A DNA stretch of 64,000 nt, taken from an uncultured archaeon. Its GTDB lineage: Archaea > Thermoproteota > Bathyarchaeia > 40CM-2-53-6 > CALIRQ01. The stretch lies in contig CALIRQ010000006.1 in assembly GCA_938042195.1 (NCBI GenBank), positions 46,868 through 110,867 of the forward strand. The letters run 5' to 3'. Shown piece by piece: positions 13,431 through 40,232 of this stretch; position 1 is the first letter of the stretch, and each line of letters opens with the position of its first letter. A program made the translations under genes and the position numbers. The notes under the pieces are model-generated. The model saw only the letters and a program-made list of their open reading frames with translations, was not told where the DNA came from and made no database searches.

Positions 13431-13564
13431 TGGCGGGCCCGCCGGGAATTGAACCCGGGGCCACCGGGTCTCTCCCCGGGGGTAAAAGCTTCGCCGGCGC
13501 CCCGCGACGCCACCGGTGCTCTACCTGGCTGAGCTACACGGCTCCTTTGGGAGCTTACGGGCCC
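13431..13564 (-). tRNA. tRNA-Lys(UUU) with three introns (9/10, 30/31, 37/38)
   Basis: Removing 13555-13535 (21 nt), 13512-13490 (23 nt) and 13482-13470 (13 nt) leaves a 77-nt cloverleaf: GGGCCCG UA GCUC AGCCAGGUA GAGC A CCGGG CUUUUAA CCCGG UGGCC CCGGG UUCAAUU CCCGG CGGGCCC G CCA. Each junction forms a BHB-like fold. Confidence 0.9.
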
Positions 13565-13656
13565 AGCAGGCCCGCCCGCTACGCAAAGGGGGCAATTTTC
13601 TAATTAATCTTTCCCGAGCCAAGTTTAAATGCCCTAACCGATAAATCAAAACTGGG

Positions 13657-13998
13657 TTGAGGATAGAGTTTTATGGATTCGGGAAGATAGTCATCGATGG
13701 CAAGGCCTACTATAGGGACGTTTTGATAACACCGAGCGGGGTCAAGGGGGATTGGTGGAGGAGATCCAGCCACGAGCTGCGGGCCGAGGACCTGAGGGGG
13801 TCTTTGGAGGGGGGCATCGAGGTGGCAATAGTGGGCACCGGGCGCTATGGGCTCATGAAGGTCCTGCCGGATGCCCTCCAGCTCCTAAGGGATGCCTCCT
13901 CTGAGCTTATAATCGAGAGGACCCCAAAGGCGTGCGAGGCCTATAATGAGCTCTCCGAGGCGAGAAGGGTCTTCGCGGCGCTCCATTTGACGTGCTAG
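13657..13998 (+). CDS. Mth938-like domain protein
   Basis: FGKIVIDGKAYYRDVLI, IVGTGRYG, TPKACEAYNEL, AALHLTC. Confidence 0.85.
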   Translation: MRIEFYGFGKIVIDGKAYYRDVLITPSGVKGDWWRRSSHELRAEDLRGSLEGGIEVAIVGTGRYGLMKVLPDALQLLRDASSELIIERTPKACEAYNELSEARRVFAALHLTC

Positions 13999-14071
13999 GC
14001 CTCCCCGGTTAGTTTTTAAAGGGGTCCCGACAAACCAATCGCCTCGATAGACCATTTGGAAGGGCTTTGCG

Positions 14072-15610
14072 TTGGCTTGGAGGGATTATTTGAAGGACGG
14101 TATCCAGCTCCCGGATCGAGTTTACGTCTTTGACACCACATTAAGGGATGGCGAGCAAACGCCTGAGGTATCGCTTACCCCCGAGGAGAAGTTGGCCATA
14201 GCCAAGCAATTGGATGCCTTGGGCGTCGACGTAATAGAGGCGGGCTTTCCGGTGATATCCAAGGGCGAGATGGAGGCCGTCAAGACGATATCTGAGGCGG
14301 GCCTCAAAGCCGAGATATGCGGATTGGCCAGGGCCGTTCAAAGGGACATAGATGTGGCGGTGGATTGCGGCGTGGATTGCGTTCACACGTTCATAGCCAC
14401 CTCGGAGGTGCATATGGCGAAGAAGCTCAAGATGACCAAGGAGGAGGTATTGGCCAGGGCCGTGGAGGCGGTGGAATACGCGAAGTCGAGGGGCGTAGTC
14501 GTGGAATTCTCGGCCGAGGATGCTACTAGGAGCGATTGGGACTTTTTGTTGGAGGTATACACGGCCGTTGAGAGGGCTGGGGCCGATAGGATAAACGTGC
14601 CGGATACGGTAGGATTCGCCATCCCGAGGGCCATGTTCCAGCTCATAAGGAGATTGAAGGATAGGATCCGGGTGCCGATATCAGTCCATTGCCACAACGA
14701 TATGGGGCTTGCCGTTGCCAATTCCCTCGCCAGCGTTGAGGCAGGGGCCGAGCAGGTACACGTGACCGTTAACGGCCTCGGGGAGAGGGCTGGCAACGCG
14801 AGCTTGGAGGAACTGGCCGTATGCCTCAATGTCCTCTACGGCATCCCGACGAACATAAAGCTGAGCGAAATCTATAAGACCTCCCAGATGGTCTCCTCCA
14901 TGACCGGGGTCATCGTCCAGCCGAATAAGGCGATAGTCGGCAGCAATGCCTTCGCCCACGAGAGCGGGATCCATACGCACGGCGTGATATCGTCCCCCGA
15001 TACCTATGAGCCGATAAGCCCGGAGCTCGTCGGCCGATCGAGGAGGCTTGTGGCCGGCAAGCACGCCGGGAGGCATGGAGTGGAGGAGATGTTGCGCGAG
15101 ATGGGTTTCTCGCTCACCAAGCAACAAATAGACGAGATCTTGGCAAAGGTGAAAGAGATAGGGGATAAGGGCGGCAAGGTAACGGATGCCGACTTGGCGA
15201 GCATGGCCGAGGCCCTGACCGGCTCCCTGCCCCCGGAGGAGAGGAGGATAAGACTCGAGGACTTGATCGTGGTCACCGGGAATAAGACCACGCCGGTCGC
15301 GACCGTCAGGCTGTTGATCGATGGGAAGGAGTATAGGAGTTCCCACTTCGGCGTTGGCCCAATAGATGCCGCCATAAAGGCCGTGAAGAACGTGGTCTCC
15401 GAGGTCGCGGCGTTCGACTTGGTGGAGTTCAGGCTCGATTCCATAACCGGCGGCACGGAGGCCTTGGCGAACGTCATAGTGAAGTTGGCCGACGAGAGCG
15501 GGAGGCTCGTTTCCACGAGGGCCGTTAGGGAGGACATAGTGATGGCGGGCGTGGAGGCGATCATCAATGCCGCCAATAGGTTGCTTTACCTCAGGGAGAG
15601 GAAGCCATGA
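14072..15610 (+). CDS. 2-isopropylmalate / citramalate synthase family (LeuA/CimA)
   Basis: DTTLRDGEQ, HCHNDMG, GLGERAGNA, AFAHESGIH, C-terminal regulatory domain. Substrate specificity cannot be assigned from sequence. Confidence 0.9.
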   Translation: MAWRDYLKDGIQLPDRVYVFDTTLRDGEQTPEVSLTPEEKLAIAKQLDALGVDVIEAGFPVISKGEMEAVKTISEAGLKAEICGLARAVQRDIDVAVDCGVDCVHTFIATSEVHMAKKLKMTKEEVLARAVEAVEYAKSRGVVVEFSAEDATRSDWDFLLEVYTAVERAGADRINVPDTVGFAIPRAMFQLIRRLKDRIRVPISVHCHNDMGLAVANSLASVEAGAEQVHVTVNGLGERAGNASLEELAVCLNVLYGIPTNIKLSEIYKTSQMVSSMTGVIVQPNKAIVGSNAFAHESGIHTHGVISSPDTYEPISPELVGRSRRLVAGKHAGRHGVEEMLREMGFSLTKQQIDEILAKVKEIGDKGGKVTDADLASMAEALTGSLPPEERRIRLEDLIVVTGNKTTPVATVRLLIDGKEYRSSHFGVGPIDAAIKAVKNVVSEVAAFDLVEFRLDSITGGTEALANVIVKLADESGRLVSTRAVREDIVMAGVEAIINAANRLLYLRERKP

Positions 15611-15691
15611 GGAAGCTGGGAGGATCGCTAGGGGATTCCGCAATATTTTTTAATCGAGTTGGCGGGCATCATTCTTCGCCCTGGGCGAAGG

Positions 15692-15816
15692 GCCCTGGTA
15701 GTATAGAGGTATTAAAGATACCGTAAAACCCGGCCTAGTATGTGCGGCTGTCGCCCGCACGACGCGGGTTCAAATCCCGCCCAAAAGGGACCATAATCCC
15801 TTGGCGAGGGGCGCCA
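15692..15816 (+). tRNA. tRNA-Asp(GUC) with two introns (15/16 and 68/69)
   Basis: Removing 15707-15728 (22 nt) and 15784-15808 (25 nt) gives a 78-nt cloverleaf: GCCCUGG UA GUAU AGCCCGGCCUA GUAU G UGCGG CUGUCGC CCGCA CGAC GCGGG UUCAAAU CCCGC CCAGGGC G CCA. Confidence 0.9.
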
Positions 15817-15935
15817 AACCCGCGTCGGAGGGAATCCGAATCACGGGCCTCCTCGGCCCCTAGAGCGAGCCCCGAGGGCTTGGAAACGCAAAAATTTTAT
15901 GCTCGATGTCCCCATCCATTACCGGTCCCGCGGAT

Positions 15936-16131
15936 CCCGCGGTAAGATGCCCAAGGCATCCCGCAAGCTCAGCCTGGTAGAGCTTCCGAGCCGGCCGAGG
16001 CAGGCGGCGGAGAGGCTGTAGGCGCGCGCCTTCGTCGGCGTGCGCTGCCCAAGCCTATCAGGCGACAGAAACCGGAGCGTCGCTGGTTCAAATCGGGCCG
16101 AGGGTCCGTGGAAATCCGGCCCGCGGGACCA
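15936..16131 (+). tRNA. tRNA-Tyr(GUA) with four introns (9/10, 30/31, 37/38, 59/60)
   Basis: Removing 15945-15966, 15989-16014, 16022-16070 and 16093-16114 gives a 77-nt cloverleaf: CCCGCGG UA GCUC AGCCUGGUA GAGC U UCCGG CUGUAGA CCGGA GCGUC GCUGG UUCAAAU CCGGC CCGCGGG A CCA, with the archaeal Tyr identity elements C1-G72 and A73. Confidence 0.9.
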
Positions 16132-16139
16132 CCACGGTA

Positions 16140-16147
16140 ATTTTTTT
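16140..16147 (+). terminator. Oligo-T tract after tRNA-Tyr (putative archaeal terminator)
   Basis: Run of seven T about 10 nt downstream of the CCA. Confidence 0.5.
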
Positions 16148-16185
16148 GGCGCATCCCATCCAATACGCAGGACCCGGGGATCGGT

Positions 16186-17205
16186 TTGGCCGAGAAGCGC
16201 CCAAAGGTCATCGTAACCGACCACGTCTATCCCACTATGGAATATGAGGTGGCCCTACTGGAGGGCTTCGGGGCCGAATGCGAAATCCATCAATGCAAAT
16301 CCGAAGAGGATGTCCTAAGGGCCGGGAGCGGGGCGGATGTATTGATGGTCACCTATGCCCCAATAACCCGCCGGGTCCTCTCGGGCCTCGGATCACTGAA
16401 GCTCGTCGTGAGGCATGGGGCCGGCTACGACAACGTCGATTTGAGGGCCGCGACGGAGATGGGCGTGATGGTCGCGAACGTCCCGAGATTCGGGGGGGAG
16501 GAGGTGGCGGATCATTCGATCGCCCTTTTGCTGGCCCTTTTGAGGAAGTTACCGGCCTTGGACGATTTGTCGAAGTCGGGCAAGTGGGGAGAATGGCACT
16601 CGGCCTTGCCCCTCCCCGCCTTGGATGGGCTAACCTTGGGGATACTCGGCTTCGGCAGGATTGGGCAACAAGTCGCTAGGAAGGCCAAGGCGGCCTTCGG
16701 AATGGATGTGATAACCCATCATCCCAGGAGGGATCGGGGAGAGATGCTCGCCGCCGGCGCCGAGCCCGTTGACTTCGAGGAGCTCTTCAGGAAGTCCGAT
16801 GCCCTGAGCATTCACCTTCCATTAACCGAGGAAACGTTCCATTTGGTCGGCGAGGAGGAGCTCCGCATGATGAAGCCAACGGCGGTTCTCGTGAACGCCG
16901 GGAGGGGAAAGGTCGTCGATGGGAGGGCCCTCTACAAGGCCCTCAAGGAGGGATGGATAGCCGGCGCGGGTTTGGATGTGATGGAAGAGGAGCCGCCAGA
17001 TCCCAAGGATCCTTTGTTGACGTTGCCCAATATAATAATAACTCCCCACGTGGCTTGGTATTCGGAGAGATCCCTGAGGGACCTCCAAGAGAGGGCGGCC
17101 CGGGAGGCCATCAGGGTCCTGAGCGGGGGGTTCCCCGAGAACCTCTTGAACCCAGAGGTTTTGAGGGCGAGGGGCCGAGAGGGGGCATCGAAACCAACGG
17201 TTTAG
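16186..17205 (+). CDS. D-2-hydroxyacid dehydrogenase family protein (PGDH/CtBP-like)
   Basis: RHGAGYDNVD, GILGFGRIG, NAGRG, DVMEEEP, TPHVAW. Confidence 0.9.
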   Translation: MAEKRPKVIVTDHVYPTMEYEVALLEGFGAECEIHQCKSEEDVLRAGSGADVLMVTYAPITRRVLSGLGSLKLVVRHGAGYDNVDLRAATEMGVMVANVPRFGGEEVADHSIALLLALLRKLPALDDLSKSGKWGEWHSALPLPALDGLTLGILGFGRIGQQVARKAKAAFGMDVITHHPRRDRGEMLAAGAEPVDFEELFRKSDALSIHLPLTEETFHLVGEEELRMMKPTAVLVNAGRGKVVDGRALYKALKEGWIAGAGLDVMEEEPPDPKDPLLTLPNIIITPHVAWYSERSLRDLQERAAREAIRVLSGGFPENLLNPEVLRARGREGASKPTV

Positions 17206-17304
17206 AATGGCACCATTGATGGACCCAAACGGGGTCCCGCGCCCTTAATCGCTTGACCGAAAGGTATAAAACGCCGATGTAGAATATGCCTTTTGGGATC
17301 GTGT

Positions 17305-17916
17305 ATGGGGTCCGAGAGGCTTTATTCCCTACCGCCACTGCCATACGACTATAAGGATCTAACGCCCCACATGTCCGAGGAGCAACTCCGGGTACATCAT
17401 ATGAAGCATCATCAAGCCTATGTGAACGGGGCCAACGCCATCCTACAAAGGCTTGAGAAGGCTAGGAGGGAAGGGGCCGATTTGGATATGAAGGCCACGC
17501 TGAAGGAGCTGTCCTTCAATATAGGAGGGCACGTCCTGCACTCCCTATTCTGGGGAAACCTCGCACCGCCCCGAGGGGCCAAGGAGCCGGGCGGAGCCCT
17601 GGGGAAAGCCATAGCCGATGAATTTGGGAGCTTTGAGAGGTTCAAGAAGGAATTTTCCCAAGCCGCCATAAGCGTTGAGGGCTCAGGCTGGGCCGCCCTG
17701 TCCTGGTGCCGACAAACTGGCAGGCCGATTATAATGCAGATAGAAAAGCATAACGCGAACGTCTACCCGATGTTCCGAATATTGATGGTCTTGGACGTCT
17801 TCGAGCATGCCTACTATATGGATTATAAGAACGAAAGGGCGAAGTTCGTCGAGGCATTCTGGAACTTGGTCGATTGGGAGGCGGTGAACAAAAGGCTCGA
17901 AGAAGCTATGAGATAG
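17305..17916 (+). CDS. sod: Fe/Mn superoxide dismutase
   Basis: [28 protein letters not shown] metal-ligand motifs. Confidence 0.96.
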
Positions 17917-18501
17917 CTTCGCCGGGGCTTTTTCCCATTATCTTTTCCTTTTTATGCGCCTCATAGATTCTGCGACCTACTATATCGAGCCCTCAAATTC
18001 GATCTCGAAGCCCACCGGGATCGCATGGACCCGATCCCAACCGATGGCGGCCCATGATGCCCCCGGGCCTCTTTGGGCCCGAGCGGCTCCATGCGGCCTC
18101 ATCTTCGGCAAAGACCTGAACGCTGGGGCCAAGGGCCTAGTCGATAGGGGGATCCCAAGGGGTCAATCGCGGAGAAATCCCTTCCCATAGGGATCATCGG
18201 GGGCCGAGCCAAAGCAATCCCATCGGAGGGAATAAGTCCGCGAGATCGCCTATGCCCTTTACTAAGGTCGGATTGTTGAGGGGGGCCAAGCGGCCGTTAT
18301 GATCCGTGCTCCATTCGCCCCGGAGGCTGTTGATGGCGCGGACGTTTGGGCGGGCCATGCGGACCACATGATGAATCAATGCCGTGTATATCCACCATAT
18401 GCCCAATCGAAGGGAATGGAGCGACTCTAAAATCCAGATTGCTCAGGGCCTTCGCCCGGGGCCTCGCTTGAATCCCGAGGCGATCCTCGTCAAGGATGCG
18501 A

Positions 18502-18612
18502 TGGCGGGCCCGCGGGGATTCGAACCCCGGATCCTAGGCTCCCCCCGCATCGCTCCGAAGGCCTCCACGCCCGAGCGGCGCTATGTCCTGATCCAGGCTA
18601 GACGACGGGCCC
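18502..18612 (-). tRNA. tRNA-Arg(UCG) with two introns (29/30, 37/38)
   Basis: Removing 18580-18563 (18 nt) and 18554-18541 (14 nt) restores the anticodon arm UAGGC-CUUCGGA-GCCUA; acceptor GGGCCCG/CGGGCCC, G73, CCA. Confidence 0.88.
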
Positions 18613-18678
18613 GTTCCTATAGGCGATGGAAACCCCTTTATAGGTTGCTGATGGATCCACCATCCGCGGCGCCGGGCC

Positions 18679-19128
18679 TTGGCCCTCTCGGATTCGGAGA
18701 TATTGGAGGCGATCTCGAAGGGGTTGATGAGGATAGAGCCATTCCGAAGGGAGGCGCTGAACCCGGCCGGCTACGATCTATCGGCCGAGCGGGAGGTCGA
18801 GGTCCCCCCGGGCGCCTTCAGGCTCGTGTCCACCAAGGAACGCGTCGAGCTCGGCTTGGGCCATTTGGGCATCCTGCAGATAAGGTCCTCGCTCGCCAGG
18901 GAGGGCCTCATCGCCAGCACCGCCCTCATCGACCCTGGGTTCAAGGGCCAGCTGACCATAATGGTGTTCAACGCCTCCAAGGGGCCGATCAGGATAATGG
19001 AGGGGGAGGCATTCGTGCAAATGGCCCTCCTAAGGCTTGGCGGGACCGCCGGCAGGGGCTACTCGGGCGCTTATCAAGGGAGCATTGGGGTCGTCAGCAG
19101 CCGCAGGCCCAAGCCAAAGGAAACATGA
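18679..19128 (+). CDS. dcd: dCTP deaminase
   Basis: LSDSEI, PAGYDL, RSSLAREGL, IDPGFKGQLT. Confidence 0.88.
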   Translation: MALSDSEILEAISKGLMRIEPFRREALNPAGYDLSAEREVEVPPGAFRLVSTKERVELGLGHLGILQIRSSLAREGLIASTALIDPGFKGQLTIMVFNASKGPIRIMEGEAFVQMALLRLGGTAGRGYSGAYQGSIGVVSSRRPKPKET

Positions 19129-19178
19129 TGGGGATTAATGGATTGGCTTCCAATCAAGGGGGGCGCATCGATCGGGAT

Positions 19179-20120
19179 TCATATCCGAGCGGGGATCTTG
19201 ATGCCGACCTTGCCCATGAGTTGCACGATTTGAACCAATCGCTCCACTATTCCATCCGGTATGAAGCGCATTACGAGGATTAGGGAGGCCCCCAAGATTA
19301 TGAGGTATACGTATGGGAAAGAGACCCAAAGCACCTCCATTAACAAGGTGAATACGAAGCCCCCTATTATCGGGCCCATGACGGTCCCTATGCCCCCGAA
19401 GACGGCCGAAACGATCATCATGAGGGCCAAGGTGCTATCGAAGGCCGAATACGGATCGATGTATGTCACGAACCAAGCGAAGCAGCCCCCGGCCACTCCA
19501 GCGAAGAAGGCGCTTATCGCGAAGGCCAAGATCTTATATTTGGTGGAATTTATCCCATAGGTCTCCGCCGCCGTTTCGTCGTCCCTTATCGCGAAGAGGG
19601 CATATCCCATGGAGCTGCGCTTTATGGCATAAGCGATCGCCGTCACCGCCAATAAGGTCAAAAGTATCGCGTAATAGAATTCTCGGAGTGCGTAACGGGG
19701 CGGGAGTATGAGGCCGTTCCCACCGCCGGTCAGCCACTCTTCGTTAATGGCGATCACCTTGAGGATCTCCGCCATCACCAGCGAGGATATCGCGAAATAC
19801 GGCCCCTTTATCCTCAATAGGATTAGGCCCAGGAATACGGCCGCCAAGAAAGACGCGAGGCCGCCTAAGACCGATGCCAAGTAGGCATCGAATGAAAGCT
19901 TCGTCACCAATATCCCGACCGCATAAGCGCCTATTCCGAAGAACATATAATGGCCAAAGCTCCAGTAACCGCTATACCCCGATATGATGTTCCAAGACTG
20001 GGCGAGGGCCGTGTACATGAATATGATGGCCAACAGGTTTATGTAGTATCCCTTCTCCACGATCGGCGGAATTAGGAAAAGCGTTAAGGCCAAGGCGATG
20101 AGCATCAAAGAGCGCTTCAT
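19179..20120 (-). CDS. livM: Branched-chain amino acid-type ABC permease (LivM-like)
   Basis: WNIISGYSGYWSFGH, GPYFAISSL, AIRDDETAAETYGI, GGIGTVMGP. Confidence 0.9.
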   Translation of the reverse strand: MKRSLMLIALALTLFLIPPIVEKGYYINLLAIIFMYTALAQSWNIISGYSGYWSFGHYMFFGIGAYAVGILVTKLSFDAYLASVLGGLASFLAAVFLGLILLRIKGPYFAISSLVMAEILKVIAINEEWLTGGGNGLILPPRYALREFYYAILLTLLAVTAIAYAIKRSSMGYALFAIRDDETAAETYGINSTKYKILAFAISAFFAGVAGGCFAWFVTYIDPYSAFDSTLALMMIVSAVFGGIGTVMGPIIGGFVFTLLMEVLWVSFPYVYLIILGASLILVMRFIPDGIVERLVQIVQLMGKVGIKIPARI

Positions 20121-20166
20121 CGCGCCCTCCCTCCCAACCGCCAAGCCGAGCTTGGGCATTGAGCCT

Positions 20167-21039
20167 TCACTCCTCTCCCGCGATCCCAGTGGGCTTGATC
20201 GATAATACGATAAGCAATGTGAGGAAATAAAGCAGGGGCTGGTATCTGGCGCCTAAGAAGTAGGTCCCGGAGGCCTCGGCGAACCCTATCATCAAGCCGC
20301 CTATCAAAGCGCCCGCATACGATCCCAAGCCGCCGAGGATTACGATCGTTATGGCCTTTATCCCCAATACCGATCCCATTTCTGGGGTGACCGCGAATAT
20401 TGTGGATATCAAGGAGCCGGTTACGCCGGCCATTGCTGCGCCGCTTATGACCATGAACCTCGACATCACATTGGGGTTGATGCCCACAAGCATCGCATGC
20501 TTCCTGCTCTCGCTCACGGCGCGTGCGGCCCTGCCGATTTGGGTCCTCTTGAGCATTAAATAGAACAATATGGATAAGGCGATCGCCACCAAACCCCCAT
20601 AAAGGAAGGGCCTAGATATCGATATCGCACCGATGGTCGCCGGGGGAACCCCTAAGTTCACACCCCTCAGGACATCCGTCCACATATACCTCGTTATGTT
20701 TATCAGGAGTATGGCTAGGCCGTAGGTCACAACCAAAGTTATGGCCCTGAAATAGCGCATCCCGAAGAATGGCTTCATCAGAAGCTCGTGAGTGAAAGCT
20801 CCAATCGCGGCCAGCGCGATGGCCGAGAATACGGCCGATGCGTATGGGCTTATGCCGTATAGCTCGTAAAGCCAATAGGCCGCATAGGCGCCGAGCATTA
20901 CGAATGCCCCGTGGGCCCAATTGATGGCCTTCACTACGCCGTAGATCACATTCAGCCCCACGGCCATCAATACGTATATAGATCCCAAGAGGAGGGCTTG
21001 AACGATCAATTGGAGAATCGTATCCGCGGATGGTATCAA
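20167..21039 (-). CDS. livH: Branched-chain amino acid-type ABC permease (LivH-like)
   Basis: GLNVIYGVVKAINWAHG, GRAARAVSE, ILGGLGS. Confidence 0.9.
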   Translation of the reverse strand: MIPSADTILQLIVQALLLGSIYVLMAVGLNVIYGVVKAINWAHGAFVMLGAYAAYWLYELYGISPYASAVFSAIALAAIGAFTHELLMKPFFGMRYFRAITLVVTYGLAILLINITRYMWTDVLRGVNLGVPPATIGAISISRPFLYGGLVAIALSILFYLMLKRTQIGRAARAVSESRKHAMLVGINPNVMSRFMVISGAAMAGVTGSLISTIFAVTPEMGSVLGIKAITIVILGGLGSYAGALIGGLMIGFAEASGTYFLGARYQPLLYFLTLLIVLSIKPTGIAGEE

Positions 21040-21063
21040 TCGGCAGCACCAAAAAAGGGAGGG

Positions 21064-22335: not shown

Positions 22336-22372
22336 GATCTCCTCCCTCTCATTTTCAAGTGACCAATAAGCC

Positions 22373-26916: not shown

Positions 26917-27466
26917 ACAACTCCCATATGTAAAAGTCCTCGAGAGCAAGCATTGCATCTCCCGCATTCCATTTAAAATTTCTCATTAATTTTTAAAGGC
27001 ATTATATATAAATAGAAAAGGTCGCCGCCGATGGATATTAACAAACCTATATTAAACCCAAGGGATGGACCAAGGATTTAATCCATCACGATATTAAGGC
27101 TGCCTGCGAATAGCCCGGTCCATTATGCGTACCCCCTGAACTAGGAAATGCTTGAATGTGCCGACGCAACGGCCTTCCCCCATTACGTTAAGGGCATATC
27201 AACCAACCCATCAACTTATCTTTTCCACCCTTCACACGATAGTAGCAAAATACGCTTCCCAGGAAAAAGGTTTGACCTTTGAGGGCGCTCTGGGAGGCGA
27301 TAAGCATTCAGTCGAAATCCAGCAACCGTTTTCATGCCAGCCGGTTTGAAGAATATCCTTCGAATGCTGAAAGGATCTGGGGATTGAAGTCTCATAATGC
27401 GCAGAGCAAGATGTGGATGCTCATTAATTTTGATAACGATCCCTTGCCCACTTCTCTCCAAATCAG

Positions 27467-28468: not shown

Positions 28469-28574
28469 ATGGTGCACCGATGAGGGTTTGCATCTCCAAA
28501 AGTTTTTAAGCATTTTCTACGGCAGTTCGGAGAGCGCCCTAGCCTCCCGCTAGGGCTTTCAGGAGGGACCCGCT

Positions 28575-29160
28575 CACTTTGATTAGAACCTTGACTGCAA
28601 TTTGCCCTGCGACAGCTCGAGGCCATTCGCTATTTCATCTAACGAGAATTTATGGTGTTATCGTCGGTTCTTTTATCCTCCAGGAATTTATCAGATAGGT
28701 GCTCTTCTTGAAGCCCGAAGCCACATAAGCGAGCGATCCGAAGATTTCTCTTCTCACGATCGTCATTGGCTCGCTGGAACCGGCGAGGCCGCTAGCCCTA
28801 TCCAAACTACCCTCCCGCCCGGCGTAACTAAGCCCGCGGATTGGACCAAGGCTTGAGGCGGTCCCGAGGCGTCTATGGGTATGTCTGCGCCAATTCCTTA
28901 GGTGAGCTCCTTAACGCTTTCCGAAGATCTTCCAGGGTATTGGTTGTGGCCCCTGAGCTCGGCTCCTTCGACAGCTTCAGTCGGCTCTCGATTAGATCGA
29001 TTGCAACCGTATGAGCACTGGCGATGTTAGCTGCTTGTAGAGCGAAAAGTCCGATGGCTTCAACTCCAGAGATCGCCACAAAATCCCCCGACCTTTACGC
29101 TCTATCGATTGCATGAATCCCGATCGCCGCTGGCTCGACTTAAATGACCTTATCCGCGCC
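28575..29160 (-). pseudogene. Degraded third MDR dehydrogenase
   Basis: Fragments in shifting frames with stops: EPAAIGIHAIDRA*, GDFVAISGVEAIGLFALQAA..VAIDLIESRLKLSKE, HKFSLDEIANGLEL, AVKVLIK. Boundaries approximate. Confidence 0.75.
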
Positions 29161-29390
29161 GAGTTCCTCCGCGATCTAAGCCTCTTGCGATTTCCTATGC
29201 GACGACGACCCGAGTTGCATTAAACATTTCACCATTAAGGCTTAGAGTACGTCAAACCCAGCCGCGCTTTCCAATCGATGGGGGTTGCAAAGGCGAGGGG
29301 GTTGCGCATTAAGTTTAGCTCGGGTAAAAATGTTTCGCGCTTAACGGGCATCGAGCCATCCGTATAATCATAGTTCTGGAGGGGACTCGC

Positions 29391-30626: not shown

Positions 30627-30760
30627 ATGCGATTCCTCCAAATTTTTATTGTGGACAGCGATTTAAATAGCTTTTCCCACGAGGATCTCGACAATTCGCT
30701 CCCCCAACGGACCTTTTTAATGGGATTGGGGCGATCCTTCGAATTTTTATTCCAATTAAA

Positions 30761-31660: not shown

Positions 31661-31703
31661 ATACCATTCGCCATCCTTTGCCTATTTCAGGGCCCGCTGT
31701 AAT

Positions 31704-32495: not shown

Positions 32496-32606
32496 AGTCG
32501 GCCACCGGCCATTTGTTCGAATACTCCTAATATAAATTTTTCGAAAGGAATTGCGTTAAAAAAAAAGGCGTTGTTATGTCTTTGAAATCAGCTTAATCAT
32601 AGAACA

Positions 32607-33107: not shown

Positions 33108-33108
33108 T

Positions 33109-34365
33109 CTACATAGCCTCCCTTGGATCGGTTATGGCGCCATAGAGGGCGGAGGCCGCAGCCGTGGCGGGGGAGGATAGGTATATATGCGCCTTGGGGT
33201 TCCCAGCTCTGCCCAAGAAGTTCCTATTGGCGGTGCTCAATACGACCTCATCATCCGCCGGGATCCCCCCGACGACGCCTATGCATAAGCCGCAACCGGG
33301 CGGCGTGATAACGACCCCAGCGGACGCTAACCTTTCAATTATCCCAGCCTTCAAGGCTTGTAGATATACATTTCTCGAGGCGGGGGTCGCTATCGCCCTT
33401 ACGCCCCTGTCGATCCTCTCCCCTCCGATTATCTTGTCTATCACTTTGAAATCCTCCATCCTACCGTTGGTACAGCTGCCAAAGAAGACCACATCTACCC
33501 TCTTGCCCAATACTTCTTCCACGGGGACCACGTTGTCCACATTATGCGGCAATGCAATCATCGGCTCCAAGTCGCTGGCTTCAATTGAAATCTCATCACT
33601 ATATATAGCATCGCCATCCGGTTCGATCTTGAAGTATTTATCCCCCCTCCCCCTCTCCTCCAAGTACTTCCTCGTTTCCTCATCGGGCGGAATGAGCCCG
33701 CATTTCGCCCCGGCCTCCACGGCCATGTTCGTAATGGTCATCCTCTCCTCCATATTCATTCTCCGAATCGCGCTCCCGTGGAATTCCATGGATTTGTAAT
33801 TGGCGCCCTCGGCCCCTATCATGCCTATTATCTTCAATATGACGTCCTTGCTGAATACGCCCTTCGGCAGCCTCCCCTCAACGCTTATCCTCATGGATTC
33901 GGGTACGCGAAGCCATGTCATCCCGGTTTTCAACGCTATAGCCACATCGGAGGCGCCCATGCCGGTGGCGAAGGCCCCGAAGGCCCCGGCCATGGTGGTA
34001 TGGGAATCGCTGCCGATTATTATATCTCCGGGGGAGGCGTAATATTCGGCTATGAGTTGATGGCAAACCCCGCAGCCCTGGTCATGGAATCTAACGCCTT
34101 TTTCGAGCGCGAACCCCTTCAGGGCCTTATAGTCGTTGCTTATGCTGGCGCTCGGGCTGGGTACGACATGATCGATGAAGACGCATACGCGGCTCGGGTC
34201 GAGCCCAATCCCGCCGCCGAGCTCGTTCAACCTGGAAATGACCAATGGGCCGCTGGCATCGTGCGTGAATACACAATCCAAGCCGCCGACTATTATGATT
34301 TCACCAGCGCCGATATACCTCCCGCATTTCCTCGACAGTATCTTTTCAACCAAGGTCTGGCCCAT
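33109..34365 (-). CDS. leuC: 3-isopropylmalate dehydratase / homoaconitase family large subunit
   Basis: DHVVP, GVCHQ, GSDSHT, GSCTNGR, CGLCIG, NRNFLGR. Gene symbol denotes family only. Confidence 0.9.
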   Translation of the reverse strand: MGQTLVEKILSRKCGRYIGAGEIIIVGGLDCVFTHDASGPLVISRLNELGGGIGLDPSRVCVFIDHVVPSPSASISNDYKALKGFALEKGVRFHDQGCGVCHQLIAEYYASPGDIIIGSDSHTTMAGAFGAFATGMGASDVAIALKTGMTWLRVPESMRISVEGRLPKGVFSKDVILKIIGMIGAEGANYKSMEFHGSAIRRMNMEERMTITNMAVEAGAKCGLIPPDEETRKYLEERGRGDKYFKIEPDGDAIYSDEISIEASDLEPMIALPHNVDNVVPVEEVLGKRVDVVFFGSCTNGRMEDFKVIDKIIGGERIDRGVRAIATPASRNVYLQALKAGIIERLASAGVVITPPGCGLCIGVVGGIPADDEVVLSTANRNFLGRAGNPKAHIYLSSPATAAASALYGAITDPREAM

Positions 34366-34663
34366 TGCCGACCCCAATCTGCCTTCCTTAACTCTTCTTC
34401 CGTAAAAAGGGTTCGTCGAAATGCTGAAAGGATTCCTCCGATCGCTAGATCCCCGATCGTGGTGCCGGGACCGGGCCGATTTATGGCCCCGAGATATTGG
34501 CAAAGCTTTGAGGCACCGATATTTTAAAAGCCCAAAGGCTTATCGCCCAGCTGGTTCCATCCTTTTAAAGGAGGAGGGGCGGGCATTGGTTCAAGAACTT
34601 GGCCAGAGGTGGAGCGTCATCCTTAAAATATAAGCAAGAACATGTAAAGCCGGGGGGGAGGGG

Positions 34664-35401
34664 ATGGACCCGAAGAGCAGCTCGAGGCTGGCGGACCTGA
34701 AGTATAAGCTGATGACGGTCGAGCTCCTCAACCTAGCCAAGAATTACTATACCTACCGCGAGCTATCCCAGCTCACCGAGCTGCCGGAAACGGTCCTGAG
34801 CAGATATGTGAAGGGCCACGTGATGCCCACCATAGAAAGGGCCAGGAAGCTGAACAGGATCTTGGAGAAGAACCTGAGGCTGGAGGTGGAGCTCCAGAAG
34901 AGGATAAAGATGGATGATTATGGATTCTTCGATAATACCAAGATCATCTCCGATACCCTCCTCCTCGATAGGGCCGTCAACTGGGCCATCAATAGGTTCG
35001 CGGGAAAGCGGGTAACGAAGGTCCTCAGCGCCGCCGTCGACGGGATACCATTGGCCACCCTGCTGGCCCATAGGCTCGGGGTTGGCCTAGTAATAGCCAA
35101 GAAGGCGAAGGAGGTGGGCATAAAGGAGTTCATAGAGGAGGTTTACATCCCCTCTAAAGCCGCCATAATGGTCAGCCTATACATCCCCAGGGATGCCATA
35201 AAAAGGGGCGATGCCGTTCTGATAGCGGATGACGTCATCGATAGCGGCGAAACCCAAAGGGCCCTCATCAGGATGATCCATAAGGCCAAGGCGGAGGTGA
35301 GCGGCATCTTCTCCCTGATAGCCATAGGGGATGAATGGAGGAAGGGCATAGAGGAGGAGGTCAAATGCCCCATAGAGGTCGTGCTCACCATCAAGAAATG
35401 A
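34664..35401 (+). CDS. HTH-containing phosphoribosyltransferase-like protein (archaeal PurR/Apt-like regulator)
   Basis: N-terminal HTH ([23 protein letters not shown]) plus PRPP-binding loop [13 protein letters not shown]. Confidence 0.8.
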
Positions 35402-36450
35402 ATCGGGCGAGGCCGGCCAGATCCCAAGGTTCGTAAACGCCCCTATCTGTTATTATAGCGCTTATCAGGTCCGGCGGCGTCAAATCGAAGGCCGGGTTGA
35501 GGGCGCCGACGCCCTTCGGGGCTATGCGGCGGCCGGCGAAGCTCAGGACCTCCTCCGGGTCCCTCTCCTCGATCGCTACCTCCTCGGGCTTGGAGGAGAA
35601 ATCGAACGTCGATAGCGGCGCGGCCACGTAGAACGGGATGGAGAACCTCTTAGCGGCTATCGCCAAGCCCAAGGTCCCTATCTTGTTGGCGACATGGCCC
35701 GTCGCAAGGACCCTATCGGCGCCGACGATCGCCTTGGAAACGAGGCCCTTGCTCATCAAATGCGCGGCCATCCCATCAGTTATCAAGGTCACCGGTATGC
35801 CGCCCCGGCTCAGCTCGAAGGCCGTTAGCCTAGCGCCTTGGAGGAGTGGCCTCGTCTCGGTGGCTATGACCTCGATCCGCTTCCCGGCCTCAACGGCGGC
35901 CCTTATCACGCCCAAGGCCGTCCCATAGCCGGCGGTGGCCAGGGCCCCCGCATTCCGCTGGCCCTCGGGGCCAATTGCAGTGCGTTAGGACCCTATCGCC
36001 ATCCTCCAGCAGGGCGGCCCCGAATGCCCCGAGCCTCCTATTCGCCTCCATATCCTCCTCGGCTATCCGCTTCGCCTCCTCCACGACGGCTCCAACGATA
36101 TCGCCCGGGCCCGCCTCCCTCGCCTTCGATAGGATCCTGGAGATGGCCCATTGAAGATTGGCGCCGGTCGGCCTCGTGGCCCTCAAGGCCTCAGCGGCCC
36201 TTTCAAGATCGGATAGGATCCTCTCGCCCTTCCCCTTGGATCTGAGGGCCGCGAGAGCCATCCCGGCCGCGGCCGCAACCCCGATCGCCGGCGCGCCCCT
36301 AACCGCCATGTCCCTTATCGCCTCAGCCACATCGCGAGGAGTCCTGCAACGGATGCGGCGCAACCTCCAAGGCAGGGCCCTTTGATCTATTATGACGACC
36401 TCCCTGCCCCTTAGCTCGACCGGTCTTAGGTCAAATGCCCTCGATCCCAA
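35391..36450 (-). CDS. mtnA: S-methyl-5-thioribose-1-phosphate isomerase (MtnA / eIF-2B family), interrupted by a 22-nt intron
   Basis: Exon 1 (36450-35975) encodes [24 protein letters not shown] and LTHC-N. Exon 2 (35952-35391) encodes [36 protein letters not shown] and NPAFDLTP. Joined length is 1038 nt = 345 aa + stop. Start is TTG 36450 or ATG 36465. The ORF track shows two ORFs in different frames. Confidence 0.88.
35953..35974 (-). other. Putative pre-mRNA BHB/BHL intron in mtnA (UUGGCCCCGAGGGCCAGCGGAA)
   Basis: Fold: CUGC / AA|U bulge / UGGCCC-CGA-GGGCCA hairpin / GCGG / AA|U, closed by CGC/GCG. Excision at the two AA|U sites restores frame and the THCNAG motif. Confidence 0.85.
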
Positions 36451-36483
36451 AGCGGAACCTCCCATTGTTGAGCGGTCCGATCG

Positions 36484-36568
36484 CGATAAAAACCTTGGCC
36501 CAAGATCCGGTTCGGATGTTTGGGGAACGAATCGCTTAAGCGGAAGCGGCGATCGAATGGTTAAATAT
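36484..36568. promoter_or_regulatory. Back-to-back TATA-like boxes between mtnA and the splicing endonuclease gene
   Basis: TTTTAT on the minus strand (about 36486-36491) and TTAAATAT on the plus strand (36561-36568), each roughly 25-40 nt upstream of a start codon. Confidence 0.5.
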
Positions 36569-36592
36569 GACTTGGGATGAGGTAGGGCGGCC

Positions 36593-37105
36593 TTGGAAGG
36601 GGAAGCCCAAAGGTTCGATGGCCGCATCCGCGGGAGGGCGGCGGTGATACCTAACGGCGGGGCCATAGGGGAGCTCAGGGAGAGGGGGTTCGGTGAGCCG
36701 AGGAATGGCGATCTCATACTCTCCCCGTACGAGGCGTTCTACCTCATCGAGAAGGGAAAGCTCAGGATATTGGATCCTAAGGGGGGAAGGGAGCTATCGC
36801 TCGAGGAGATCGTCGGGAGGCTATCGAGGGGCAGGGCCGAGGTTTGGCTGAAGTATTTGGTCTTCAAGGACCTCAGGGATCGCGGCTACATAGTGAGGGA
36901 CTTCAAGGGGATGAACTTGGAGGTCTATGGGAAGGGGCCCCAGAGGAGGATCGCGAGGATCATTTACGAGGGCGGGGAGGCGAGCTTGGATGAGCTCAGG
37001 AGGGCGCTCAGGGCATCAGCGAGGGCCGGAAGGGAGCTCATATTGGCGGTCGTGGATAGGAGGACCGACATAGTGTATTATTCCCTGGGCGAGCTGAAGC
37101 TGTGA
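36593..37105 (+). CDS. endA: tRNA splicing endonuclease, structural (beta) subunit
   Basis: LSPYEAFYLIEKG, KYLVFKDLRDRGYIV and LILAVVDRRTDIVYYSL (L10 loop/beta9). The catalytic Tyr position is kept (LEVY), but there is no His after it and the catalytic Lys segment reads RAGRE. Confidence 0.87.
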   Translation: MEGEAQRFDGRIRGRAAVIPNGGAIGELRERGFGEPRNGDLILSPYEAFYLIEKGKLRILDPKGGRELSLEEIVGRLSRGRAEVWLKYLVFKDLRDRGYIVRDFKGMNLEVYGKGPQRRIARIIYEGGEASLDELRRALRASARAGRELILAVVDRRTDIVYYSLGELKL

Positions 37106-37117
37106 GGGGCCGAGGGG

Positions 37118-38437
37118 TTGACGAGGTTCGCGGTTCCGAGGGGAATGAGGGACCTATGGCCCGAGGATTGGGCCAAGATGGATTGGATGGGGAGGAGGAT
37201 ACTCGACGTCCTGATTGGCTATGGCTTCAAGCCCGTTGAGCCCTCGAAGATCGAGCTGTTGGAGACTCTGGAGGCGAAGAGCGGCCCATCGATAAAGGAG
37301 GAGATCTATTGGTTCGAGGACAAGGCCGGCAGGCCCTTGGGCCTTAGGTTCGATCTCACGGTGGGGCTGGCCCGAATGGTCGCCGGGAGGCCCGACCTCC
37401 CATTGCCGGCCAAGTTCTGCGCGATATCGGATATGTGGCGCTACGATGAGCCCCAATTCGCCAGGTATAGGCATTTTTGGCAATGGGATGCGGAGATCTT
37501 CGGATCCGAGCTCGCTGAGGCGGATGCGGAGGTCATCTCGGCTGGGATCGATGTCCTAAGGGCCGTTGGGATAGTGAACTTCGAGGTGAGGATAAGCGAT
37601 AGGAAGCTGGCCGAGGGGTTCCTGAGGGGGATGGGCATCGGGGATCCAGCGCGGCTCGGGGAGGCCATAAGGATCTTGGATAAGCGAGGGAAGCTATCCC
37701 GAGGGGAGTTCCTAGGGGAGCTGAGGTCCCTCGGCCTAGACGATAGGCAGATCGAGGGGATATTGGATTTCGTCTCCATAAAGGCGCCCCTGGAGGAGGG
37801 GCTGAGCAGGGCGAGGGGCTTGGGCCTCGAGCGCGGTATGGCCGAGGAGGGGTTGAAGGAGCTCGAGGGCTTGGCCGATGCCCTGAGGGGCTTCGGGATC
37901 GGCCAAGAGGCCGTCTTGGACCTGAGCGTGGTGAGGGGATTGGATTATTACGACGGCATCGTATTCGAGGCTTATGATCGGGGCGGGGAGGATATAGGCG
38001 CCATCTTCGGGGGCGGGAGATACGATGGGCTCTGCGGCATTTACGGGCGGAATGTCCCCGGGACCGGATTGGCCGGCGGGATGGAGCGCATGATGCTCTC
38101 CTTAGAGCGCTCGGCCCTCTTCCCGAAGCTCAGGAGCGGGCCGCTAGTCTTCGTGGCATCCGCCAACGAGGCCGTTAGGAAGGAGGCGATCCGGATGGCC
38201 CAAAGGCTCAGGGCTAAGGGGATACCCGCTGAGTTCGATCTGAAGGGGAGGTCCCTCAGGGGCCAGATGGAGTATGCGGCCGGATCGGGCATGCCCTACG
38301 CCTTGATAATTGGGCCCAGGGAATTGGAGAAGGGGGTAGTTAAGTTGAGGGATTTGGGCGCGAGGTCCGAGGAGGAGCTGAGCGCGGAGGATTGCCTCAA
38401 GAAGCTCTCGGACTTAGCCAGATCCTTCGCCCGCTGA
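37118..38437 (+). CDS. hisS: Histidyl-tRNA synthetase
   Basis: PRGMRD, LRFDLT, WRYDEPQFARYRHFWQ, RGLDYYDG, GGGRYDGL, anticodon-binding domain. Confidence 0.96.
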   Translation: MTRFAVPRGMRDLWPEDWAKMDWMGRRILDVLIGYGFKPVEPSKIELLETLEAKSGPSIKEEIYWFEDKAGRPLGLRFDLTVGLARMVAGRPDLPLPAKFCAISDMWRYDEPQFARYRHFWQWDAEIFGSELAEADAEVISAGIDVLRAVGIVNFEVRISDRKLAEGFLRGMGIGDPARLGEAIRILDKRGKLSRGEFLGELRSLGLDDRQIEGILDFVSIKAPLEEGLSRARGLGLERGMAEEGLKELEGLADALRGFGIGQEAVLDLSVVRGLDYYDGIVFEAYDRGGEDIGAIFGGGRYDGLCGIYGRNVPGTGLAGGMERMMLSLERSALFPKLRSGPLVFVASANEAVRKEAIRMAQRLRAKGIPAEFDLKGRSLRGQMEYAAGSGMPYALIIGPRELEKGVVKLRDLGARSEEELSAEDCLKKLSDLARSFAR

Positions 38438-38526
38438 GCCTTCGGGCAAGGCCCATGGGATTATCCCTCAGGCCTCTCCAATCCCGATAATATTAAATAG
38501 GCGGGTTTTCCCTTCCAACGTTCAAG

Positions 38527-38624
38527 GCATCCGGGGGAGCTGGGGGAACCCGGCTGAGAGGGTGGCAGATCCGCCACCGACCCTTGGAACCTGATCCGGG
38601 TAATGCCGGCGAAGGGAGGGATGC
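38527..38624 (+). promoter_or_regulatory. TPP (THI-box) riboswitch
   Basis: P1 GCAUCC/GGAUGC; conserved GCUGAGA, GACCC, GAACCUGAUC and GGGUAAUGCCGGCGAAGGGA; TATA-like ATTAAATA about 30 nt upstream; directly upstream of thiW. Confidence 0.93.
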
Positions 38625-38724
38625 GGTGGATGGGCTATCCGCCGAAGCCCAGCCGAGCGCTGGGGCTCCTTCTCCGATCCGGATCCGTTCCCCCGGGTGC
38701 ATCGAAGCTCGGAGGTGAATGCAT

Positions 38725-39294
38725 ATGAAGGCTGGCGAAAGGGGGTTGACCCTGAATTTGATCCTCGCGGCTTGCCTAACGGCCTTGGGGGTGGCCATAG
38801 CGCCCTTCTTCTATTTCCCGTTTCTGGGAACGAGGGCTTTCCCAGGGCAGCATTTGATCAACGCGCTAACGGGCGTCATCCTCGGGCCTTGGTGGGGCGC
38901 CCTGGTCGCCGTCCTGATAGGCATCGTTAGGAACCTGCTCGGCGTGGGGACCATATTCGCCTTCCCGGGCGGGATCCCCGGCGCCATCGTGGTCGGCTTG
39001 GCCTATGGGGCAATGCGGCGCTTCAAGGGGAGGCGCTTCCGCTACGCGGCGGCCCTGTTCGAGCCCCTTGGGACCGTTCTGATAGGAGCGACTTTCTCGC
39101 TCTTCTTGGTTGCGCCCATAATAGGCTGGAGGCCCCTCTTGAGCTTGATTGAGGGATTGGGCCCGCTCCCAGCGCTCCTAACGCTCTGGTTCGGCTGGTC
39201 GATAAGCTCCGTGACCGGCAGCGCGATGGGCTATATTGTCCTCCTAATCCTTGATAGGGTGGGCCTCATGGGCAAATTGTCCAAATCGCCTTGA
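38725..39294 (+). CDS. thiW: ECF-type thiazole/thiamine precursor transporter S component ThiW
   Basis: TRAFPGQHLINAL, LGVGTIFAFPGGIPGA, EPLGT; fully hydrophobic. Confidence 0.9.
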   Translation: MKAGERGLTLNLILAACLTALGVAIAPFFYFPFLGTRAFPGQHLINALTGVILGPWWGALVAVLIGIVRNLLGVGTIFAFPGGIPGAIVVGLAYGAMRRFKGRRFRYAAALFEPLGTVLIGATFSLFLVAPIIGWRPLLSLIEGLGPLPALLTLWFGWSISSVTGSAMGYIVLLILDRVGLMGKLSKSP

Positions 39295-39312
39295 ATACGG
39301 GGCGCGGGGCAG

Positions 39313-39942
39313 GTGAAGGGATCGACGCTGGCTCGCAGGAGGATTGGCCCGGAGGAGGGCATCCCCTTTCGAGAATTGCTGGGCAGGAGGGTCCTGATCC
39401 TAGGGGAGGTCGGGAGCGGGAAGAGCAGGCTCACCGCCAAATTGCTCGGGGAGGCTGTCCGCCTAGGCTATTCGAATAGGATTGCCGTGATCGATCTATC
39501 TCCGGAGATAAGGCTTCCCTCCGGGGAGGTCGTGGGGGCCCCCCTCACCCGCTATATGGAGATAGGGCCGCCGATCAAATACATGAGGCCCTCTGGGATC
39601 AGGGCCCCGAGGCTCGAGGGGAGGGATCGAGAGGAGGTATTGAGGTTTGCCGAGGAGAACGCGAGGGCCATAGAGGCCGTTTTCGACGAGTACCTGAGGG
39701 AGGCGCGGGAAATCCTTTTCATGAACGACGTCAGCATATACCTCCATAGAGGCGGACTGGACCGTTTGCTCTCGGTCCTCTCCGAGGCGGATACCTCTAT
39801 ATTAAATGGATACCACGGGGCCCGCCTCAGCGAGGATAGGGGTTCGGGCATCTCGAAGAGAGAGAGGGCCCTGATGGAGGATTTGGCCGATAGGATGGAT
39901 TTGCTCATCGAGATGGATCGCTCTTCCACGGAAGGCCTTTAG
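39313..39942 (+). CDS. P-loop NTPase of unknown function (HerA/DUF87-like N-terminus)
   Basis: VLILGEVGSGKS Walker A followed by IAVIDLSPE. Confidence 0.7.
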   Translation: MKGSTLARRRIGPEEGIPFRELLGRRVLILGEVGSGKSRLTAKLLGEAVRLGYSNRIAVIDLSPEIRLPSGEVVGAPLTRYMEIGPPIKYMRPSGIRAPRLEGRDREEVLRFAEENARAIEAVFDEYLREAREILFMNDVSIYLHRGGLDRLLSVLSEADTSILNGYHGARLSEDRGSGISKRERALMEDLADRMDLLIEMDRSSTEGL

Positions 39943-39957
39943 CTATAGACCGAGGTT

Positions 39958-40081
39958 TGGTGCGGGGGGTGGGATTCGAACCCACGAAGGCCTGCGCCAC
40001 AGGATATCGCATCCTGCGACGGATCTTAAGTCTGGCACCCCGTTGGGCCCTGCCCCTTTGGCCTGACTCGGGAACCCCCGC
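39958..40081 (-). tRNA. tRNA-Leu(UAA) with two introns (30/31, 37/38)
   Basis: Removing 40048-40032 (17 nt) and 40024-40006 (19 nt) gives an 88-nt tRNA with anticodon arm CAGGA-CUUAAGA-UCCUG, a long variable arm, A73 and CCA. Confidence 0.88.
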
Positions 40082-40138
40082 CGTTGGACGGCATCTAAAG
40101 ATATAAAGGGCTGGAGAAAAATATTCCCAGTCAGCGGA

Positions 40139-40232
40139 GGGCCCGTGGCTCAGCCTGGATAGGGTTAAGGGCGTCCAAAGCGGCGGCCTCCTAAGTCGTA
40201 GGTCGTGGGTTCGAATCCCACCGGGCCCGCCA
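40139..40232 (+). tRNA. tRNA-Arg(CCU) with one intron (22/23)
   Basis: Removing 40163-40178 (16 nt; central helix GGAU/GUCC) restores the D-stem GCUC/GAGC; anticodon CCU; CCA encoded. Confidence 0.9.

Follow-up and report, generated by a model that had tools for sequence, protein, structure and literature searches.

Predicted multiple introns in the six tRNA genes of a 64,000-nt window from a Bathyarchaeia-type archaeon

The 64,000-nt stretch of contig CALIRQ010000006.1 analysed here, referred to as the window, raises the question of how its tRNA genes are to be read. On the unspliced sequence, ARAGORN reports one of six genes, that for tRNA-Arg(CCU), and misnames it Leu(CAA), while the Rfam tRNA model places three of the six above threshold as partial matches with large insertions. 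A preliminary description of the window had proposed that every tRNA gene in it is interrupted, with 14 introns in six genes, ten of them non-canonical. The counts and sites obtained here match that proposal exactly, and we consider it highly probable that the six loci are functional tRNA genes, each carrying one to four short protein-spliced introns of the bulge-helix-bulge type.

Six tRNA genes and their introns

T-loop motifs were located and the surrounding sequence was read, which gave six genes, all between positions 13431 and 40232: tRNA-Lys(UUU), tRNA-Asp(GUC), tRNA-Tyr(GUA), tRNA-Arg(UCG), tRNA-Leu(UAA) and tRNA-Arg(CCU). An exon model was written for each gene from the cloverleaf, with the Sprinzl numbering checked by hand, and all splice registers giving an identical mature sequence were tested for bulge-helix-bulge geometry. 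The required geometry had bulges at a-1..a+1 (5') and b-1..b+1 (3') and, between them, a central helix of 4 bp in which a-5..a-2 pair with b-5..b-2. Exactly one valid register was found for each of the 14 introns, which range from 13 to 49 nt. The six spliced sequences are full canonical cloverleaf tRNAs with the stated anticodons as judged by ARAGORN, and in each case the gene sequence includes the 3' CCA. The exons of every gene are contiguous and colinear on a single strand; none of the genes is split or permuted. Five of the six carry at least two introns (range two to four).

The gene for tRNA-Lys(UUU) lies on the minus strand (13564..13431) and is divided into four exons by introns at positions 9/10 (21 nt, 13535..13555), 30/31 (23 nt, 13490..13512) and the canonical position 37/38 (13 nt, 13470..13482). 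The first two motifs each have three of the four central pairs, and their outer and inner helices measure 6 and 5 bp at 9/10 and 4 and 6 bp at 30/31; the third has a complete central helix, and its outer helix consists of a single base pair as long as the transcript is unspliced. tRNA-Asp(GUC) (15692..15816, plus strand; three exons) has a 22-nt intron in the D-loop at 15/16 (15707..15728), with three of four central pairs, no outer helix and an inner helix of 6 bp, which is the relaxed HBh' form. Its second intron, 25 nt in length, interrupts the acceptor stem at 68/69 (15784..15808) and has all four central pairs, with outer and inner helices of 2 and 6 bp.

The most heavily interrupted gene is that for tRNA-Tyr(GUA) (15936..16131, plus strand), in which four introns separate five exons and each motif has a complete central helix. 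The introns lie at 9/10 (22 nt, 15945..15966; no outer helix, inner helix of 6 bp), at 30/31 (26 nt, 15989..16014; outer 2 bp, inner 4 bp), at the canonical position 37/38 (49 nt, 16022..16070; inner 3 bp) and in the T-loop at 59/60 (22 nt, 16093..16114; outer 5 bp, inner 6 bp, bulges AAU/AAU). As read from the spliced sequence, the mature tRNA-Tyr has a C1-G72 pair and A73, both of which are typical of archaeal tRNA-Tyr.

tRNA-Arg(UCG) (18612..18502, minus strand) has three exons and two introns, one of 18 nt at 29/30 (18563..18580; three of four central pairs, outer and inner helices of 3 bp each) and one of 14 nt at 37/38 (18541..18554; central helix complete, outer 4 bp, inner 2 bp). tRNA-Leu(UAA) (40081..39958, minus strand) likewise has three exons, separated by a 17-nt intron at 30/31 (40032..40048; central helix complete, outer and inner helices of 3 bp each) and a 19-nt intron at 37/38 (40006..40024; three of four central pairs, inner 3 bp). 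The remaining gene, for tRNA-Arg(CCU) (40139..40232, plus strand), has two exons and a single 16-nt intron in the D-stem at 22/23 (40163..40178), with a complete central helix, an outer helix of 1 bp and an inner helix of 3 bp.

All 14 motifs thus share a central helix of 4 bp flanked by two bulges of 3 nt, with all four central pairs formed in nine and three of four in five. The three second-pair mismatches named in the preliminary description (Lys 9/10, C-U; Lys 30/31, A-C; Leu 37/38, U-C) are all present, and two further mismatches affect the first pair (Asp 15/16, G-A; Arg-UCG 29/30, A-G). The strict form of the motif, with 2 bp or more in both the outer and the inner helix, is seen in ten introns, and the relaxed form, with an outer helix of 0-1 bp, in four (Lys 37/38, Asp 15/16, Tyr 9/10 and Arg-CCU 22/23), of which Lys 37/38 becomes strict once the 30/31 intron is removed.

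How far can such motifs be trusted? Motifs of relaxed quality are frequent: one strand of the window alone has 22,797 candidates, which corresponds to 0.7% of random site/length pairs, or about one candidate per 3 nt per strand by chance. The motif alone says little, and the evidence lies in its coincidence with the junctions dictated by the cloverleaf. At all 14 junctions the motif is carried by one of between one and six equivalent registers, for which the joint chance is about 1e-26. The intron count might nevertheless be over-fitted, with some of the 14 (one of the tRNA-Tyr introns, for example) being artefacts of a permissive motif search; the abundance of chance motifs and the absence of an outer helix in the four relaxed ones would fit such a view. 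So would the outcome of a scan in which ARAGORN was run on 3.49 million variants generated by splicing throughout the window, allowing up to three non-canonical introns and one canonical intron per gene, in that it returned many spurious alternative solutions around the real genes. Against over-fitting, the boundaries follow from the cloverleaf, and the 14-intron model alone yields canonical tRNAs with correct identity elements. The pattern of change in related sequences, described in the following section, argues in the same direction, and over-fitting is a very improbable explanation.

In the same variant scan credible tRNAs were obtained at the six loci only, and no further tRNA was found in the 7.3 kb that follow the end of the window on a Logan contig. 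T-loop-like matches at 15432, 19226, 47260 and 60459 gave no tRNA in the scan; those at 47260 and 60459 were also read and are not tRNAs.

Conservation in related contigs

Three groups of related contigs were available for comparison, in which seven distinct tRNA genes of the clade were examined. Two Logan contigs (L081 and L162, from run ERR9287632) are 99.95-99.98% identical to the window and reproduce its structures in an independent assembly. Three contigs from JGI metagenomes (L082-L084) have about 90% nucleotide identity to the window, with a LeuA-like protein that is 90-93% identical, and five ENA contigs (L163-L167) are about 82-86% identical to it. The genes for tRNA-Lys, tRNA-Asp and tRNA-Tyr occur in the same arrangement in L082-L084; that for tRNA-Arg(UCG) is also found in L082 and L083, and with both of its introns in L167.

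Eleven of the 14 introns can be compared in L082-L084, and all 11 are kept without a change of position. When the window is set against L082, two of 311 exon positions differ, compared with 51 of 273 intron positions (Fisher P = 8e-16). Each of the 11 introns has accumulated substitutions and indels, the latter confined to the hairpin loops, whereas the intervening exons, including those of only 7 nt, are almost free of both. The tRNA-Lys exons show 0-1 differences in L082-L084, with the 9/10 intron present in L082 and L084 and indels in its loop, and the tRNA-Asp exons are identical in all three. The four tRNA-Tyr introns are all kept in these contigs, where one of 77 exon positions differs compared with 17-23 of 119 intron positions; the argument against over-fitting therefore extends to every intron of this gene.

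The changes in the relatives also bear on the helices themselves. In L082 the inner helix of Asp 15/16 shows a compensatory change from U-A to C-G, and the central helix of Arg(UCG) 29/30 a change from U-G to U-A. In the relatives a G-U pair of Tyr 59/60 becomes G-C and a U-G pair in the inner helix of Lys 30/31 becomes C-G, and the inner helices of Asp 68/69 and Tyr 30/31 are longer (7 bp in the latter). Structure rather than sequence is thus what is conserved in the 11 comparable introns. The central-helix mismatches are kept as well, which indicates that they have long been tolerated and are not recent damage.

These observations allow a second alternative to be weighed, namely that the loci are decaying tRNA pseudogenes broken by insertions, with functional intron-free copies elsewhere in the genome. 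The failure of standard detectors on the loci is what would be expected of such remnants. However, purifying selection acts strongly on the exons as compared with the insertions, every insertion lies in bulge-helix-bulge register with compensatory changes in the relatives, the encoded CCA and an intact spliced cloverleaf are present in all six genes, and no fewer than three diverged relatives have kept the structures. Decay is accordingly the least probable of the explanations considered here, marginally below over-fitting.

The tRNA-Leu locus differs within the clade. In L163-L166, which represent a more distant relative of about 85% identity, a tRNA-Leu(CAA) gene (L163:9684-9836, minus strand) stands at the genomic position of the tRNA-Leu(UAA) gene of the window and contains three introns, of 19 nt in the D-loop, 24 nt at 30/31 and 22 nt at 37/38. 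With 3' exons that are 96% identical, the two genes suggest that an anticodon switch or a gene replacement took place at the locus, and that the clade also gained or lost one intron there.

Several points weigh against the reading of the six loci as functional, spliced genes. Splicing itself is deduced from sequence. Neither a catalytic endonuclease subunit nor RtcB was found among the open reading frames (ORFs) of the window. The intron at Arg(CCU) 22/23 has no ortholog with which it could be compared (an exact 60-mer search of species-representative genomes gave no match), and the sole comparison for tRNA-Leu is the differently structured Leu(CAA) gene. In minimum-energy folds of the whole precursors the central helix appears for only two of the 14 introns, one of them Asp 68/69, and the full motif is seen in one of 14 local minimum-energy folds (Tyr 9/10), although the flanking helices are mostly in register. 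Finally, several motifs compete with helices of the cloverleaf, and those at 9/10 take up acceptor-stem nucleotides 4-7. The folds are mostly uninformative because the nearest-neighbour model exchanges a 4-bp helix with two bulges for an internal loop, and we treat their outcome as neutral, neither for nor against.

Splicing and the endonuclease

In the established archaeal pathway both bulges are cut by an endonuclease, which frees the intron, and the exons are ligated by RtcB (PMC4090602, PMC12397907). On this model each gene of the window would be transcribed as a single precursor, an endonuclease, probably a heteromeric enzyme of which the window encodes a non-catalytic subunit, would cleave within both bulges, and an RtcB-type ligase would join the exons. 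The precursors would have to adopt alternative folds, since the 9/10 motifs need acceptor-stem nucleotides 4-7 and so clash with the cloverleaf.

The spacing of the introns points to an order of removal. A stem intron (29/30 or 30/31) sits 7-8 nt upstream of the 37/38 intron, and the outer helix of the 37/38 motif lengthens from 1-4 bp to 5-7 bp when this neighbour is removed (after removal of the 30/31 intron it measures 7 bp in tRNA-Lys and 6 bp in both tRNA-Tyr and tRNA-Leu). With the stem intron excised, the anticodon stem would form again and serve the 37/38 motif as its outer helix. An order of removal, stem intron first and 37/38 intron second, is therefore likely, and ordered removal has been described for other multi-intron tRNAs (PMC8450103, PMC3728597).

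What kind of enzyme might carry out these reactions? The window encodes a 170-residue EndA paralog (36593..37105, plus strand) that matches the Pfam families tRNA_int_endo_N and tRNA_int_endo. Compared with the Methanocaldococcus jannaschii and Methanopyrus kandleri enzymes (1A79 and 5X89), the loop bearing the catalytic His is deleted and an Arg occupies the position of the catalytic Lys. Orthologs with 50-58% identity occur across the Bathyarchaeia; these also lack the His loop, most of them keep the Lys, and they are found in relatives whose sampled tRNA genes near rpoB have at most one intron. The EndA paralog of the window is therefore probably a structural (beta-type) subunit of a heteromeric enzyme, and it is not specific to the intron-rich clade. 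It is encoded head to head with an intron-containing gene of the IF-2B/MtnA family, described below, and directly upstream of a histidyl-tRNA synthetase gene.

Heteromeric (alpha-beta)2 endonucleases are the class that cuts non-canonical introns (PMC5829648). The EndA paralog resembles the structural subunit of these enzymes in having both domains and in lacking the catalytic His (PMC5829648, PMC12397907). The system differs in that no catalytic partner was found: no catalytic subunit with the canonical triad is present in the window, in the 7.3 kb beyond it or in 2.2 Mb of the relatives' loci. Other Bathyarchaeia carry a second endonuclease paralog of 188-207 residues, 4-7 kb upstream of rpoB (L017:6173, L020:6051, L024:2696 and L068:2523, plus strand). 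This protein keeps the catalytic Tyr and Lys and has a Ser at the His position; neither paralog has the full triad.

The preliminary description attributed the introns to a very permissive endonuclease, and an unusually permissive, novel type of enzyme could indeed have driven the expansion. The mismatches in five of the 14 central helices, conserved in the relatives, would fit this view, as would the four relaxed motifs and the prediction of an mRNA as a further substrate (see below). However, no motif departs from the 3-4-3 geometry or has more than one mismatch in its central helix; relaxed motifs and the cbf5 pre-mRNA are also known to be cut by (alpha-beta)2 enzymes of the ordinary crenarchaeal kind (PMC5829648, PMC2738675); and the paralog of the window has orthologs in Bathyarchaeia with no more than one intron per sampled tRNA gene. 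What has been published for the (alpha-beta)2 enzymes covers all 14 motifs, so that no permissive enzyme need be invoked. Such an enzyme is thus neither required nor shown by the data, and we regard it as an improbable driver, although far less so than pseudogene decay or over-fitting.

The preliminary description also anticipated further introns in mRNAs, and for one gene this has been borne out. The IF-2B/MtnA-family gene, which is encoded on the minus strand, is broken into a pair of ORFs (36717..35890 and 35915..35391) whose frames differ. The frameshift is repaired by removal of a predicted 22-nt intron (35974..35953, minus strand) with a central helix of CUGC/GCGG, bulges AAU/AAU and an inner helix of 6 bp, which leaves exons ending at 35975 and spanning 35952..35391, with the splice junction after ...LTHCN. 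The spliced protein matches positions 2-280 of the 280 positions of the Pfam IF-2B model in one stretch with 292 bits, compared with 64 and 210 bits for the separate pieces. In L163-L167 and L169 the intron is 23 nt in length, with the extra base in the hairpin loop, and the spliced frame is the same; a difference of this kind can be reconciled only with excision of the segment at the RNA level. In L163-L167, L169 and L170 gene callers have divided the gene in two. As of 2009, cbf5 was the only gene with a confirmed archaeal pre-mRNA intron (PMC2738675), and no later reports of other archaeal pre-mRNA introns were found in the literature. The present case differs from the cbf5 intron of Crenarchaeota both in the gene concerned and in the lineage (PMC2738675).

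Host lineage and origin of the introns

The best RpoB matches among those listed are to metagenome-assembled genomes (MAGs) of Bathyarchaeia, with 64-72% identity, followed by Nitrososphaeria with about 57%; Thermoprotei are absent from the top 80 RpoB matches listed. The nearest named homolog, at 91% identity, belongs to 'Candidatus Bathyarchaeia archaeon' GCA_038847815.1. The host is a Bathyarchaeia-type archaeon and not a member of the Thermoproteales; such archaea and the Nitrososphaeria fall in the same broad group. Sequencing runs that contain the window sequence or close relatives are labelled as marine and hot-spring metagenomes, and a relative of the L082 type is also held in hot-spring metagenome runs. 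The source habitats are geothermal and hydrothermal.

Other features of the window were noted in passing. The RpoB ORF (1117 residues) is unsplit, and RNA polymerase subunit A is encoded by a single ORF of 1273 residues (5871-9692, minus strand) that contains Rpb1 domains 1-5 without a split into A' and A''. A thiamine pyrophosphate (TPP) riboswitch (38523-38635, plus strand; 71.7 bits compared with an Rfam threshold of 54.3) lies upstream of a gene for a ThiW thiamine-precursor transporter. A match to the archaeal signal recognition particle (SRP) RNA (60846-61173, plus strand) covers the whole model with 82.7 bits, below the Rfam threshold of 96.5, and is taken as a divergent SRP RNA. Three stretches of 467-877 nt (17917-18383, 26917-27466 and 28514-29390) contain no ORF of at least 90 residues and have no Rfam match; the first of these (about 470 nt, non-coding) is not conserved in L082-L084, and there is no evidence for an RNA gene there.

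When were the introns acquired? In distant Bathyarchaeia tRNA-Lys(UUU) is intron-free (L045 and L064) and 91-95% identical to the spliced gene of the window, and tRNA-Asp(GUC) is intron-free in L049, L050, L057, L058 and L064. The tRNA-Leu(CAA) genes of distant Bathyarchaeia have no intron or one canonical intron. In about 195 kb from the twelve closest loci the only tRNA genes are four for tRNA-Ser, each with one canonical intron. The tRNA-Leu(CAA) genes of distant Bathyarchaeia (L015, L016 and others) were considered as orthologs of the tRNA-Tyr gene, because they match its exon positions 48-70, and were rejected as genuine Leu(CAA) genes with a similar T-arm.

The absence of introns from tRNA-Lys and tRNA-Asp in other Bathyarchaeia indicates that they were gained within the clade of the window. 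As far as these sequences allow, the gain appears to have followed the split of the clade from the other sampled Bathyarchaeia, with vertical inheritance since then. The lineage-wide intron expansion envisaged in the preliminary description is supported to the extent that these genes allow. The introns are kept in relatives of about 90% and about 82-86% identity, one group of which has the three-intron tRNA-Leu(CAA); distant Bathyarchaeia have few or none, and for the clade the conclusion is based on seven tRNA genes.

The introns might also derive from a small number of sequence families that recently spread from one tRNA gene to another by transposition, a process that has been proposed for Thermoproteales. 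Consistent with this, the same positions recur in different tRNAs (9/10 twice and 30/31 three times), and the introns at Lys 9/10 and Tyr 9/10 share their flanks and a similar hairpin layout. Against it, no pair exceeded z = 3.4 among the 91 pairs of an all-against-all comparison (which has little power with 14 short introns), and the comparable introns were all fixed already in the relatives of about 90% identity, so that the spread was not recent. We judge transposition to be unlikely, if somewhat less so than a permissive enzyme, and vertical inheritance after a gain within the clade is the preferred account.

The density of introns can be compared with that of known systems. Archaea have on average 0.21 introns per tRNA gene and Thermoproteales 0.84 (PMC8450103, PMC4033280), and the record genome, that of Pyrobaculum calidifontis, has 71 introns in 46 genes, or 1.54 per gene (PMC8450103). 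The density in the window is 2.33 per gene, a value from six genes only set against a genome average. The Poisson probability of 14 introns in six genes is 9e-11 at the archaeal mean, 8e-4 at that of Thermoproteales and 0.09 at that of the record genome. The published maximum is three introns per tRNA gene (PMC8450103, PMC4033280), which the four-intron tRNA-Tyr gene exceeds.

To the extent that they are described in the secondary accounts, the introns of the Thermoproteales P. calidifontis and Thermofilum pendens (Sugahara et al., 2008, via PMC4033280 and PMC8450103) are similar, being short, both canonical and non-canonical, several per gene, closely spaced and removed sequentially. The window differs in its Bathyarchaeia-type lineage, in the presence of four introns in one gene and in that no intron sequence families were detected. 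Thaumarchaeota/Nitrososphaeria likewise have non-canonical introns that need clade-specific models for their detection (PMC8450103), but the intron density here is far higher. In the red alga Cyanidioschyzon merolae, highly disrupted nuclear tRNA genes have up to three ectopic bulge-helix-bulge introns each, in the D-loop and T-loop among other sites, with ordered removal established by experiment (PMC3728597); this alga is a eukaryote and some of its genes are permuted, whereas all exons are colinear here. A full-text literature search, of incomplete coverage, returned nothing relevant on four-intron archaeal tRNAs or on tRNA introns of Bathyarchaeia.

The type of element and the mechanism are therefore already known. 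What is new is the host lineage, the four-intron tRNA-Tyr gene, which is kept in the contigs of three relatives, and the local density. We put forward, as a tentative proposal that we hold at somewhat less than even confidence, that the clade may have the most intron-dense tRNA set of any organism (above 1.54 per gene genome-wide), with the first four-intron genes, acquired independently of Thermoproteales, and with introns of this type entering protein-coding genes, of which the IF-2B/MtnA-family gene would be the first case.

Multi-intron tRNA genes have so far been treated as a speciality of Thermoproteales, with a ceiling of three introns per gene. The usual MAG quality standards count tRNAs. 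Since the standard tRNA finders overlook or mislabel five of the six genes, genomes of the clade will look tRNA-poor and may fail such standards, and protein-coding genes with introns of this type will be annotated as two fragments, as is the case for the IF-2B/MtnA-family gene in every relative examined. A second, unrelated uncultured clade that reaches four introns per gene would mean that runaway intron gain has happened more than once, and would provide another system in which to study what drives it.

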